Source of the DNA: an uncultured Alphaproteobacteria bacterium
GTDB taxonomy: Bacteria; Pseudomonadota; Alphaproteobacteria; Rs-D84; CACZYB01
Direction of reading: 5' to 3'
Assembly: GCA_934246625.1 (NCBI GenBank)
Contig: CAKQHZ010000002.1
Span: forward strand, 180,001 to 212,000
DNA length: 32,000 bases
Shown here: positions 20,948 to 23,771 of the stretch, piece by piece
How positions within the stretch are numbered: position 1 is the first letter of the stretch
How the letters are laid out: each line of letters begins with the position of its first letter
Translations under genes and position numbers: made by a program
Notes under the pieces: generated by a model
The model's database searches: none
What the model was told of the DNA's origin: nothing
What the model saw: only the letters and a program-made list of their open reading frames with translations

Positions 20948-20959
20948 TCTATATTTTTA

Positions 20960-20988
20960 TTTACAAAAATTTAATTATGTATTAAGAT
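20960..20988 (+). promoter_or_regulatory. candidate sigma70-type promoter (TTTACA-17 nt-TAAGAT)
   Basis: The -35 TTTACA is at 20960-20965, followed by a 17-nt spacer and the -10 TAAGAT at 20983-20988, just after the rpe stop. This would start a transcript near 20995, about 220 nt upstream of the first Cys-rich gene. Confidence 0.35.
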
Positions 20989-20995
20989 GAAATTA

Positions 20996-21212
20996 GGTTT
21001 GGAAGTTATTCTGAACTTAGTGTCCTTAATGGATACGGGATTGTCGAAGGTCCTTTATAGTCTGCGTATAACGCAATGTTATATGGTAAATGCCCCCGCC
21101 TTTAGTGGGGAGCCCTTGATGTATGTTCAGAGGATATATCTTTATGTCCTTAAAGATCTTGTGGAATCATTTCAGACTATATGATTTTCGAACTCCCCGC
21201 CGTTAAGGATAA
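20996..21212 (+). ncRNA. candidate structured 5' leader / cis-regulatory RNA (unclassified)
   Basis: GC-rich blocks sit in an AT-rich background. A local hairpin spans 21092-21113. A 9-bp long-range pairing joins 21056-21064 to 21173-21181. An alternative 8-bp helix joins 21105-21112 to 21193-21200. TGTCCTTAA occurs at both 21021-21029 and 21145-21153, and each copy is complementary to the SD region TTAAGGA at 21203-21209. Confidence 0.3.
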
Positions 21213-21629
21213 ATGGGAAAAATTTTTGTGTTTTTGCACAAAATAAAGGGGAAAAAGAACATGAACAAGAAGTTATCAATATTGGTATCTACATTTTTAT
21301 GTGTAGCGTTATCATCTAATGTAAAATCAGAAACATTAATAGAGTCATTACAAAGGTATTGTGTGCCAACTGCTGAAGTTTGCGGAACTGTGGCAAGGGC
21401 AACATACAACACATCGGAAAGTGCTTGCGAGTGTTCGGCTTGCGGAATGTATTATGATAAAACTTCCAGAAGTTGTCAGACTTGTCCAGAGGGAACTTAT
21501 GTGAACAACAGATACTCCACAGAGTGCATAAGGCCAGATTGTGGCATAGGCAATTATGGAGTTGTTGAAACTGGCAAAACCGATTGTGGAATAGGATTTT
21601 ACAAAGTAGCTTTATCCAGTTGTAAATAG
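21213..21629 (+). CDS. secreted cysteine-rich protein (CxxCPxGTY / DCGIGxY modules), unknown family
   Basis: The signal peptide (MNKKLSILVSTFLCVALSS) is preceded by a short MGK... extension. The alternative start ATG 21261 has SD AAAGGGG. The roughly 100-aa mature part has 11 Cys, with SCQTCPEGTYV and a duplicated DCGIG(N/F)Y. GC content is visibly higher than in neighbouring genes. Confidence 0.7.
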   Translation: MGKIFVFLHKIKGKKNMNKKLSILVSTFLCVALSSNVKSETLIESLQRYCVPTAEVCGTVARATYNTSESACECSACGMYYDKTSRSCQTCPEGTYVNNRYSTECIRPDCGIGNYGVVETGKTDCGIGFYKVALSSCK

Positions 21630-21636
21630 GAGATAT

Positions 21637-21677
21637 GGGAGGAGGTATTTTCTTATGGTTTTTGCTTCCTCCCTCCC
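21637..21677 (+). other. GC-rich hairpin sequestering an SD-like GGAGGAGG
   Basis: GGGAGGAGG (21637-21645) pairs with CCTCC(C)TCCC (21668-21677) across a 22-nt loop that contains ATG 21655. No U-tract follows on either strand, so it is not a canonical terminator. Confidence 0.5.
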
Positions 21678-21711
21678 AAAAGATAAGATGAGGTGTTTAA
21701 TGAGAAAAAGA

Positions 21712-21776
21712 GTCAGCACAAAAGTACGAAGTGCAACGGTAGCCCTAAAGGGACGGAGGGCAGTTGCTTTGCTGAC
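21712..21776 (+). ncRNA. candidate structured RNA element: three coaxial helices (7+5+5 bp)
   Basis: GTCAGCA (21712-21718) pairs with TGCTGAC (21770-21776). GCAAC (21733-21737) pairs with GTTGC (21763-21767). GCCCT (21742-21746) pairs with AGGGC (21757-21761). The internal loops are asymmetric, and the element is about 50% GC in an AT-rich background. Confidence 0.3.
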
Positions 21777-21849
21777 ATACTAAACCCTTAAAGAAAAATA
21801 AGAAAAATGGAGAAATAATGGAAAAGTTTTTAAAACTAGAACCTTATAA

Positions 21850-21910
21850 GAGCACACCCCGCAAGGGGGGGTAAGGGGTGTGCTCGGTAAAATTGATGTA
21901 TCAATTTTAC
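21850..21910 (+). other. twin perfect hairpins (11-bp GC-rich followed by 10-bp AT-rich)
   Basis: GAGCACACCCC (21850-21860) pairs with GGGGTGTGCTC (21875-21885); an inner alternative is CCCC-GCAA-GGGG. One nucleotide later, GTAAAATTGA (21887-21896) pairs with TCAATTTTAC (21901-21910) across a TGTA loop. No U-tract follows. Confidence 0.5.
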
Positions 21911-21964
21911 ATACATTAAAATTAAAAACTAATATTAACAAACTAAACTGAAAGGTAAAATAAA

Positions 21965-22684
21965 ATGGGAAAAATGAAAAATATGAACTTATTGTTGGTA
22001 ATGACAACTTTGCCAATGACTGCAAAAGCCGATCTTTTTAAATGTATGGCTTGTACTAATAAACCTGCTAACGCTCACTATACATCCGGCGGAACCAATA
22101 CCTCCAATTGCTCTTGGTCTTGCGATAGCGGATATACTAAAAATGATAATTTATGCTGTGCAAATAAACCTGATAATTCTTATTATTACTCCAATAATTG
22201 TGGTTGGAATTGTAATAGCGGGTATGCATCTTGTAATAGTCGTTGTATTAAAGATGAAAGAATTGCGAATTCATCATACAATTCAAGTTGTGAGCTAGAA
22301 TGTAATAAAGGATATAAACCTGTTTATACAACAACTGGTGGAGGTTGTTCATTTACTGTGAAGACTTTATCTGAGTGTAAAGTTGATCCTTGGGTTCACT
22401 GTGCGACAACAGCTAATGCTATATATATTCAATTTACTCATACTACTGAATATGGTGAATCATGTGCTAGCTCACAAAGAAAATATTATTCTGCGGGAAC
22501 TTCATTTAATCCTGTTTTTAGAAGTTGGGAAAAAGGTAGGTGTGCTTATGTGATGTTTAGAATATATAAAACATCAGATCAAACACTTTTAAAAACAGTA
22601 TCAGTCAGCGTTTTCAAGACACAATTTGATTATGACCAAAGATATATTTATTGTGATGGAAAACTTCAAAAATATACTGAATAA
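21965..22684 (+). CDS. secreted cysteine-rich repeat protein (3x C-x-[WL]-x-C-[DN]-x-G-Y modules), unknown family
   Basis: Short signal peptide (MKNMNLLLVMTTLPMTAKA) and 18 Cys. Three tandem modules between 22052 and 22315 read CTNKPANAHYTSGGTNTSNCSWSCDSGY, CANKPDNSYYYSNNCGWNCNSGY and CIKDERIANSSYNSSCELECNKGY. The first codons (ATGGGAAAAAT...AAYATGAAC...TTGGTA) are shared with the upstream Cys-rich gene. Confidence 0.72.
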   Translation: MGKMKNMNLLLVMTTLPMTAKADLFKCMACTNKPANAHYTSGGTNTSNCSWSCDSGYTKNDNLCCANKPDNSYYYSNNCGWNCNSGYASCNSRCIKDERIANSSYNSSCELECNKGYKPVYTTTGGGCSFTVKTLSECKVDPWVHCATTANAIYIQFTHTTEYGESCASSQRKYYSAGTSFNPVFRSWEKGRCAYVMFRIYKTSDQTLLKTVSVSVFKTQFDYDQRYIYCDGKLQKYTE

Positions 22685-22689
22685 AAAAG

Positions 22690-22714
22690 AAAAGGGGTTT
22701 TGCCCCTTTTTTTT
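22690..22714. terminator. bidirectional intrinsic terminator between convergent genes
   Basis: AAAAGGGG (22690-22697), loop TTTTG, CCCCTTTT (22703-22710), with an A-run upstream and a T-run downstream. It sits between the stop of the Cys-rich gene (22684) and the stop of epmA (22713). Confidence 0.8.
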
Positions 22715-23771
22715 ATAGTGTTGGAATTTCGGTCCAAAGAATATCCTTTATATCATTTGCACCAGTTGAAAGCATTATTAAGCGGTCAATTCCCATTGCA
22801 ATGCCAGTGGCTGGGTCCATATTTTCTATGGCTTCGATAAAACTTTCATCAATAGGATATGTTATGCCGTATAATTCCTTTTTTGTTTGCATATCGTGTT
22901 CAAAGCGAGCACGTTGGATTTTTGCATCGGTTAGTTCGGTGAATGCATTTGCAAGTTCAACTCCACAAACATAAAGTTCGAATCGTTCAGCAATATTTTT
23001 ATTGGTATCCTTTGCCTTTGAAAGGGCAGCTTGATGAATTGGATATTCATAAAGGATTGTTGGTTTTTCACAGCCAAGATTTGGTTCAATATATTCGAAC
23101 ATAAGTTTTTCGTATATGTCGTCCCATGTATCAATTTGTGATACGTTGATGTTTAGTGATTTTGCCTTTTCTTCCAATAAATGTTTTGATGGGTTTTCTG
23201 GATTATCTATTGTTGCGAGTATATCAAAGTGGCAAAATTTTTCAAATGCTTCCTTTACAGTTAATTTTTCCATACCATTAAATGGAGAACATTTTTTACC
23301 ATTGTGTTCAAAAAATTCTTTGCCGATTGATGATAATGCGGATTTTAAAATTTTTTCGCAATCGTCCATAAGTTTTGTATAGTCGTAATGTAATCTATAC
23401 CATTCTAACATTGTGAATTCAGGATAGTGTGTAGGAGATACAATTTCGTTTCTGAAGGTATGAGTAAATTGATAGATATTTTCCATACCGAAACTTAGCA
23501 ATTTTTTCATTGCGAATTCAGGTGATGTATGAAGGTATAAAGTTTTTGGGTTTGTGCCAGTTATGTCCAAAAATTTTGTTTCAAATGCGGTAAGGTGGAC
23601 TTCCATTCCTGGGCAATATTGAAGGATAGGGGTGTCAACTTCGGTAAAAGATTCTGTTGAAAAAAATTTTTTGATTGCGTTTATGATTTTGTTTCGCATC
23701 AAAAGAAAAGGAAGTTTCCTTTTGAAAACTTCCCTTGCTTTGTATGTATGTAAATTATTATTTTGCATCAT
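22713..23771 (-). CDS. epmA: elongation factor P--(R)-beta-lysine ligase (EpmA/GenX/PoxA, LysRS paralog)
   Basis: About 350 aa class II aaRS catalytic core without an anticodon-binding domain. Motif 1 is FTEVDTPIL, motif 2 is FTHTFRNE...PEFTMLEWY and motif 3 is GIAMGIDRLIML. The start is placed at the MMQNNN Met pair (23771/23768). The longer track ORF (to 23906) is a low-complexity read-through antisense-free overlap with rplY. Confidence 0.85.
   Translation of the reverse strand: MMQNNNLHTYKAREVFKRKLPFLLMRNKIINAIKKFFSTESFTEVDTPILQYCPGMEVHLTAFETKFLDITGTNPKTLYLHTSPEFAMKKLLSFGMENIYQFTHTFRNEIVSPTHYPEFTMLEWYRLHYDYTKLMDDCEKILKSALSSIGKEFFEHNGKKCSPFNGMEKLTVKEAFEKFCHFDILATIDNPENPSKHLLEEKAKSLNINVSQIDTWDDIYEKLMFEYIEPNLGCEKPTILYEYPIHQAALSKAKDTNKNIAERFELYVCGVELANAFTELTDAKIQRARFEHDMQTKKELYGITYPIDESFIEAIENMDPATGIAMGIDRLIMLSTGANDIKDILWTEIPTL

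Follow-up and report, generated by a model that had tools for sequence, protein, structure and literature searches.

Strain-to-strain cassette exchange and amino-acid diversification at a locus for cysteine-rich proteins with export signals in an uncultured gut alphaproteobacterium

The stretch of DNA analysed here (the window) comprises 32,000 nt of contig CAKQHZ010000002.1 (assembly GCA_934246625.1, positions 180,001 to 212,000 of the forward strand) from an uncultured alphaproteobacterium and carries, between rpe and epmA, two plus-strand genes for small cysteine-rich proteins with Sec-type signal peptides, which we call gene 1 and gene 2. The main new result, absent from an earlier note on this DNA, is that gene 2 is hypervariable and exchanges a cassette from strain to strain. 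In contigs of the same species the flanks are 98.8–99.4% identical to the window and the order rpe, leader, gene 1, gene 2, epmA is found in all of them; in many, gene 2 is the same through position 22135, where the motif CDSGY ends, and is then wholly different up to the epmA stop. The breakpoints of this swap, seen in strains with flanks 99.3–99.4% identical, are exact (22136 and about 22712), and the 5′ part of the gene (21965–22135) retains 97–99% nucleotide identity between both allele types. In the protein the swap point falls after residue 57. The 577-nt cassette A of the window is replaced elsewhere by an unrelated 735-nt cassette B, and each of them has a terminator of its own that abuts the epmA stop, with no room for an open reading frame (ORF).

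The module endings of the window protein are CSWSCDSGY, CGWNCNSGY and CELECNKGY. The product of cassette B consists of a glycine-rich domain, then a Cys-studded hypervariable region and then an invariant end, ...DTISVQNC.G.CAILYKLK; the heads encoded by A and B are two new domain types. In strain L015 the signal peptide of gene 2 is replaced too, and signal peptides are kept where their sequence is swapped. In a related species (GCA_014803575.1), the flank proteins of which are 75–91% identical, the ortholog of gene 2 adjoins epmA and has A-like modules (CCANAPANA...CGWTCNSGY) fused to a B-type head, at 50% identity. Since this ortholog mixes A-type modules with a B-type head, the gene 2 alleles are module mosaics, and since it adjoins epmA, the locus is ancestral in the lineage.

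The substitution pattern points to strong diversifying selection on the distal domain of gene 2. Among six type-B strains there are 83 nonsynonymous and 9 synonymous changes in gene 2, against 10 nonsynonymous and 27 synonymous ones in the flanking genes (odds ratio 25, Fisher p=2.7e-12), and the two type-A alleles, those of the window and of L002, differ by nine nonsynonymous changes and no synonymous one. The summed pairwise ratio of nonsynonymous to synonymous change (pN/pS) is 2.9 (2.5 in the most variable part) and one stretch of 119 codons holds 114 nonsynonymous and 0 synonymous pairwise differences, while the housekeeping neighbours, where more than one substitution was available, give values of 0–0.4. 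The changes are gathered in short patches with in-frame indels (3, 6 and 9 nt) amid perfectly conserved blocks; in about 17 distinct alleles there is no frameshift or premature stop, the indels in the aligned DNA are all multiples of three, and, down to an overall identity of 50%, neither the Cys and Gly residues nor the C-terminal motif vary. Of the nine type-A changes, one turns Cys125 into Arg in L002. A diversity-generating retroelement was considered as the source of the patches and dropped, because indels are present and neither a template copy nor a reverse transcriptase was seen in the window, where gene 2 occurs once and none of the proteins has a reverse-transcriptase domain.

Upstream of gene 2 lies the only run of seven or more G or C in the window, and its length differs between the nine assemblies compared: seven in the window and L018, eight in L002, L016, L019, L020 and L023, and nine in L001 and L022. 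A simple-sequence tract of the kind that marks phase-variable contingency loci is thus present (G7/G8/G9), and we consider it a candidate phase-variation tract that may switch or tune the expression of gene 2. The coordinates of this and the other features of the locus are collected in Table 1.

Table 1. Features of the locus between rpe and epmA (window coordinates; Cys, cysteine; GC3, GC content at third codon positions)
Feature	Position	Strand	Remarks
Structured leader / candidate non-coding RNA	20960-21260	+	GC-elevated; 5′ of gene 1
65-aa ORF in leader (probably spurious)	20987-21184	+	GC3 42%; codon-adaptation z=−7.7, worst of window
8-bp hairpin	21224-21243	+	−7.2 kcal/mol, z=−2.0; in gene 1 leader
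Gene 1	21261-21629	+	122 aa, 12 Cys; Cys-rich protein with export signal; called as 122 aa on all related contigs
Gene 1 signal peptide	21261-21329	+	Sec-type; cleavage predicted between MNKKLSILVSTFLCVALSSNVKS and E
Hairpin just 3′ of gene 1 stop	21637-21673	+	GGGAGGAGG...CCTCCCTCCC; −19.3 kcal/mol, z=−2.8
42-aa very basic ORF (candidate)	21655-21783	+	MVFASSLPKDKMRCLMRKRVSTKVRSATVALKGRRAVALLTY; perfect GGAGG site upstream
11-bp GC hairpin with poly-G loop	21850-21885	+	−23.2 kcal/mol, z=−4.8; ~95 nt upstream of gene 2
Poly-G tract	21865-21871	+	G7; sole G or C run >=7 in window
Perfect 11+11 palindrome	21887-21910 (element 21887-21935)	+	GTAAAATTGAT-GT-ATCAATTTTAC; overlaps two promoter-like sites for gene 2; z=−4.7
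Gene 2	21965-22684	+	about 236-239 aa, 18 Cys
Gene 2 signal peptide	21965-22030	+	Sec-type; cleavage predicted between MGKMKNMNLLLVMTTLPMTAKA and D
Gene 2 Cys module 1	22043-22135	+	CMACTNKPANAHYT...CSWSCDSGY
Gene 2 Cys modules 2 and 3	22154-22225, 22232-22315	+	cassette A
Gene 2 C-terminal domain	22316-22681	+	122 aa, predicted beta-rich; cassette A
Cassette A	22136-22712	+	577 nt; modules 2-3, C-terminal domain, stop and own terminator (~22686-22714)

The earlier note had placed two ORFs between rpe and epmA, at 21213..21629 and 21965..22684, and both were found on the plus strand; the extreme cysteine content (12/122 in gene 1 and 18/236 in gene 2, compared with 1.1% in the other window genes) and the motifs quoted for it were likewise recovered in the translations, SCQTCPEGTYV and a duplicated DCGIG[NF]Y being readable in gene 1. 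The start of gene 1 lies at 21261 (MNKK, behind AAAGGGGA) and not at 21213 in every gene call on at least 15 related contigs. The TTTTGTG-type hairpin that the note had put inside the coding sequence does exist, but it lies in the leader because gene 1 starts at 21261. The notion that the two genes are paralogs with a conserved export signal did not survive comparison, as BLASTP gives E=2.3 and both the signal peptides and the mature parts are unrelated; what had been taken for shared first codons is a 17-nt purine-rich, ribosome-site-like string with 82% identity. The two proteins share style only, a Sec signal peptide followed by Cys modules.

Gene 1 is nearly invariant in most strains and does not co-vary with the cassette type of gene 2. 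In strain L015 its N-terminal half is deeply divergent (pS 0.55, pN 0.31) and cannot be aligned at the DNA level, while the C-terminal half is 84% identical. The mature protein of the window has 99 aa with 11 Cys (21330–21626). The number of Cys is odd in both mature alleles, 11 in the window and 9 in the divergent allele P0014, and one cysteine may be free or engaged in an intermolecular bond. The core C-x2-C-P-x-G-[TY]-[YF] of Ephrin_rec_like occurs once in gene 1 (CQTCPEGTY), is unchanged in the divergent allele and has no copy in gene 2. Against Pfam PF07699 Ephrin_rec_like (GCC2_GCC3) gene 1 scores 18.6 bits (E=0.0016; residues 78–114 of the 138-aa ORF) and P0014 scores 18.8 bits, both below the gathering cutoff of 23.1.

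The expectation that the proteins lie outside well-described bacterial families was borne out. Neither gene 1, gene 2 nor the type-B allele matched Pfam or NCBIfam at the curated threshold, PHROG gave no match with E <0.4 and the PDB sequence search none with E <0.2; for gene 2 there is no Pfam match at all and no meaningful one in NCBIfam, PHROG or PDB. In a collection of 5.8 billion protein clusters there is one relative of gene 2 over its full length, 11 more share just its first 57 residues, and gene 1 has two other clusters. An exhaustive phmmer search with the C-terminal domain of gene 2, covering 1.84 billion representatives, found apart from its own allele just four proteins, all highly repetitive, which were rejected as homologs because their E-values are inflated by summed weak repeats. 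One of the four, P0042, which by its C-terminal sequence is a putative beta-sandwich repeat protein of the type IX secretion system (T9SS) type, shares the motif VRFRIY..D.TLLY.K.V.V with this domain, a weak hint of a beta-sandwich and not of homology.

The eukaryote-like character ascribed to the modules comes down to the sub-threshold Ephrin_rec_like score of gene 1, a weak basis, whereas the TNFR, EGF and variant surface protein (VSP) parts of that claim fell away. Like the Ephrin-receptor-like, TNFR and EGF modules, those of the window proteins are about 30–35 residues long with four spaced Cys, gene 1 has CxxCPxGTY, and the gene 2 endings C-x3-C-x2-G-Y recall the EGF signature; both AlphaFold2 models, of low confidence, are beta throughout and predict stacks of beta-hairpins. 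The differences from these families are that gene 1 remains under the cutoff, that gene 2 does not match Ephrin_rec_like, and that gene 2 has C-x3-C where the EGF signature C-x-C-x2-[GP]-[FYW]-x(4,8)-C has C-x-C. No EGF family matched either protein with E <=1 and no TNFR Pfam family matched the window proteins. Foldseek with the type-B model gave nothing at E <=0.001; the best matches, TG/EGF domains of ALK and TNFR1 (E ~1–4, that to TNFR1 ~4 and from a low-confidence model), were rejected as evidence. The proteins also differ from the Giardia VSP type, with one to three CxxC per protein and no C-terminal hydrophobic segment.

The conserved module of gene 2 is shared with a very distant group. 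When 185,579 species genomes and JGI metagenomes were scanned for the peptide NKPANAHY, 23 loci were confirmed, 22 of which are 61–68% identical to gene 2 over residues 27–57. All 11 translated loci of this set use genetic code 25 and have 37–39% GC, and one locus carries the title candidate division SR1 and stems from an oral sample. The common module reads C-x2-C-[TS]-N-K-P-A-N-A-H-Y-T...C-x-W-x-C-[DN]-x-G-Y and in most translated loci stands within a Cys-rich ORF of about 1,070–1,750 aa (three run off the end of their contig, and L042 is short); the six genome loci encode an N-terminal membrane anchor, and their copy of the module comes immediately after a C-x2-C-E-V-G-T-Y module resembling that of gene 1. 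The occurrence of module 1 in giant SR1 proteins with such an anchor fits a role as an extracellular stalk, and the module is best described as a putative extracellular stalk unit common to very distant bacteria. The SR1 giants differ in being large, membrane-anchored at the N-terminus and from another phylum with code 25, whereas the window proteins are small and predicted to be soluble, and neither of the C-terminal domain types A and B was matched in the six SR1 proteins compared. These giants of oral SR1/Absconditabacteria (L003–L008, L026–L042; for example L003:4573-9846) have a repetitive Gly/Asn-rich region and many Cys modules, are unannotated and give no Pfam match, and their C-terminal halves differ widely between metagenome-assembled genomes. 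The remaining locus, on a 1-kb metagenome contig of 38% GC (L043:281-841), encodes a Cys-rich protein with a CxxC-S-NKPANAHY module, one C-terminal transmembrane helix and a short tail, the layout of a type I membrane protein.

At the DNA level the window matches SR1 over 34 nt only (91%), in codons favoured by both AT-rich genomes, and a recent transfer from SR1 was dropped on this ground. A literature search on Absconditabacteria and cysteine-rich proteins found nothing relevant. The shared module might nevertheless mark a real link, in which small soluble secreted copies of an adhesion module of the episymbiont- or host-receptor type would act as decoys or competitors at a cell-cell interface and an arms race with the partner (episymbiont, phage or host immunity) would drive the swapping and the amino-acid turnover; we regard this as very unlikely.

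The explanation that we favour, and to which we would give about an even chance, is that the locus is resident, of the contingency type, and encodes variable, disulfide-braced binding proteins that are exported. Two Sec-exported proteins, braced by disulfides, would meet something outside the cell. Gene 2 would provide a conserved signal peptide and module 1, followed by replaceable further Cys modules, which would form a rigid stalk, and by a beta-rich head; homologous recombination anchored at the conserved 5′ module and at the epmA end would swap whole head cassettes (A in the window, B elsewhere), and positive selection would act also on patches inside a cassette. The length-variable poly-G in the hairpin just upstream of the gene 2 promoter would switch or tune expression, and gene 1 would be a smaller Cys-module protein with one ephrin-receptor-like repeat, usually conserved, preceded by a long structured leader. 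The selecting partner could be an episymbiont, a competitor, a phage or antibody of the host. That the proteins are secreted and dense in disulfides, as had been proposed, holds for the Sec-like signal peptides and the Cys modules, which are readable in the translations, whereas we infer the disulfides and the surface or extracellular site, together with a role in binding or as antigens and any regulation through the G tract. The role as adhesin, effector or toxin suggested at the same time fits the strong diversifying selection on gene 2.

Several points weigh against this explanation. Neither protein shows homology to one of known function, and no fold backs the binding role because both AlphaFold2 models are of low confidence, with a predicted local distance difference test score (pLDDT) of 46.5 for gene 2 (2-sequence alignment) and 47.5 for type B (12 sequences). 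No anchor, lipobox, outer-membrane or secretion-system signal is visible in either protein, and in a diderm both could simply remain periplasmic. As the earlier note had observed, there is no Dsb-type oxidase in the window. The poly-G tract, with its supposed effect on expression, is situated neither in the coding region nor in the core promoter, and its lengths come from metagenome assemblies, in which homopolymers may contain errors.

A conserved N-terminus with swapped C-terminal cassettes and strong diversification is also what polymorphic toxin loci such as CDI, Rhs and MafB present, down to the wholesale exchange of the cassette at a sharp breakpoint, and the small product with its predicted Sec signal would suit a polymorphic secreted toxin or bacteriocin in which the conserved part for export and stalk brings exchangeable C-terminal domains that kill competitors. 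We consider this unlikely, since no immunity gene is present, the terminator of each cassette abutting the epmA stop, gene 1 does not follow the cassette type, and no toxin domain was recognised in Pfam, NCBIfam or PADLOC-independent searches. The proteins are moreover very small for such systems and have no delivery machinery, and phage, plasmid and viral-contig searches found no relatives. Periplasmic inhibitor or immunity proteins that inactivate toxins, lysozymes or phage proteins arriving from outside, and that diversify to keep pace with them, are distinctly unlikely in our opinion: a Sec signal without a further sorting signal does predict the periplasm in a diderm, and such genes are typically small, strain-variable and fast-evolving, but neither protein resembles a known immunity or inhibitor family, stalks built of several Cys-rich modules are a usual trait of extracellular proteins, the related module occurs in giant anchored SR1 surface proteins, and no effector or secretion-system genes are found near the locus. 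The least probable explanation, which we find hard to credit, is that the ORFs are decaying or non-functional under relaxed constraint at a recombination hotspot. Very high substitution rates in an orphan family, whose homologs are detectable only within the lineage, could give this impression; the pN/pS ratio, however, is well above 1 and not near it, the alleles are free of frameshifts and premature stops and have only in-frame indels, the Cys, the Gly and the C-terminal motif do not vary, and signal peptides persist even where they have been replaced.

The remaining alternative is that of the earlier note, a recently acquired foreign islet of eukaryote-like effectors acting on the host, for example receptor mimics, for which the GC-rich composition was the starting point. 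Against a background of 28 window genes (GC 32.1±3.0, GC3 22.2±3.6), the elevation spans only about 20950–22135, that is, the leader, gene 1, the hairpin-rich spacer and the 5′ end of gene 2. Windowed GC and codon statistics sustain the islet as regards gene 1 (GC 38.5%, GC3 30.9%, codon-adaptation z=−3.8) and the spacers, but the bulk of gene 2 is ordinary (GC 32.8%, GC3 19.8%, codon-adaptation z=+0.4), only its first 162 nt being elevated (GC3 38.9%). The two non-coding spacers, at 34% and 36% GC compared with 14–27% in all other spacers, are the strongest outliers, and most of the GC signal stems from gene 1 and from structured non-coding elements. The alleged use of GCC, CCC and GGG codons was mistaken: gene 1 has none of them and gene 2 has one GCC, one GGG and no CCC, these triplets sitting in the non-coding flanks. 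What speaks for a foreign origin is the atypical composition of gene 1 and the non-coding parts, at a GC (about 38%) resembling that of SR1 (37–39%), the weak ephrin-receptor, TNFR-like and EGF-like signals, and the module shared across phyla with its 34-nt stretch. On the other side, the gene pair stands at the same site in every strain examined and gene 2 has an ortholog in the related species, most of gene 2 has native codon usage, every eukaryote-like match is below threshold, the nucleotide match is short and in codons that both genomes favour, and no mobility genes are present at the locus. A recent horizontal islet is contradicted by the synteny in the related species, and we hold the alternative to be just as distinctly unlikely as the periplasmic one.

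The resident, contingency-type locus that we prefer has known counterparts. Phase-variable contingency loci with homopolymer tracts occur in Campylobacter, Helicobacter, Neisseria and Haemophilus, and like them the present locus combines a hypervariable protein with an export signal, allele cassettes and a length-polymorphic poly-G next to the promoter. Here, in contrast, the tract lies in a hairpin loop upstream of the −35 element, neither between −35 and −10 nor in frame, and ON/OFF switching would be a supposition. The Hcp proteins of Helicobacter, built of Sel1-like repeats, are likewise small, secreted and held by disulfide bonds; they belong to a diderm that lives with a host, and positive selection on them has been reported. 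Gene 1 and gene 2 differ from them in having no Sel1-like repeat signal and in being predicted as all-beta and not helical.

Variable exported proteins are a way in which host-associated bacteria cope with antibodies, phages and competitors, and to our knowledge almost all examples come from cultured pathogens. The combination of cassette alleles, nonsynonymous excess and a variable homopolymer is now found in an uncultured gut commensal, on domains that no database describes, and the locus gives a concrete starting point for studying the forces that select on this organism in the gut. It also yields the head domains A and B and a Cys-module family that crosses phyla to SR1, while gene 2, as a strain marker, may tell strains apart far better than the flanks, which are 99% identical.

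The leader of gene 1 folds better than any other of 48 windows sampled across the 32 kb (mean z −0.84, sd 1.28). Its minimum free energy is −92.4 kcal/mol and its z against shuffled controls −6.8 on the plus strand; a re-run gave −5.9 on the plus and −2.9 on the minus strand. It contains a promoter-like site (20960–20988) and has no match in Rfam. This segment may be a structured leader or a small RNA ahead of gene 1, and the element of about 300 nt would be a candidate for a new class of regulatory RNA. The 65-aa ORF within it was rejected as a gene owing to its codon usage and its position in a strongly folded region, and is probably spurious and non-coding; its pN/pS of about 0.3–1.4 comes from very few changes.

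The hairpin behind the gene 1 stop has an equivalent in strain L015, where a T-rich tail follows and the arrangement is terminator-like. The 42-aa basic ORF has no family match and belongs to a GC-rich spacer block of about 260 nt that is missing from the same strain. The palindrome upstream of gene 2 looks like an operator by comparison at the level of a consensus. After window position ~21914 an insertion of 129 nt (L001:5837-5965; also in L016, L020 and L023) carries an AAGGAGG site along with a GC-rich hairpin (GCGAGCC...GGCTCGC). Its presence or absence in a strain is independent of the gene 2 allele, and it may be a small mobile or recombined element.

The window as a whole has 31.9% GC and the standard genetic code, is covered nearly completely by long table-11 ORFs, and TGA terminates 3 of the 32 long ones. 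On the side of the envelope and division it contains genes for the Kdo transferase WaaA, LptA, LptB, a SPOR-domain protein, FtsK, FtsQ and FtsA, and on the metabolic side those for NAD-dependent DNA ligase, the anaerobic ribonucleotide reductase NrdD and its activase, thioredoxin reductase and an arginase-family protein; judging from this gene content, the host is an anaerobic diderm. Identical copies of window proteins occur on stool-metagenome contigs, including Hadza assemblies of up to 715 kb, and the bacterium is an uncultured commensal of the human gut found mainly in Hadza and other gut metagenomes. The genes bordering the pair are securely assigned, rpe by TIGR01163 (232 bits, cutoff 212.6) and epmA by TIGR00462 (363 bits, cutoff 287). 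A TTG-started ORF of 397 aa is listed as an alternative for epmA, for which the gene calls on related contigs give 352 aa instead, and on the minus strand the epmA start overlaps the stop of the L25 gene (ctc) by 14 nt (23758–23771).

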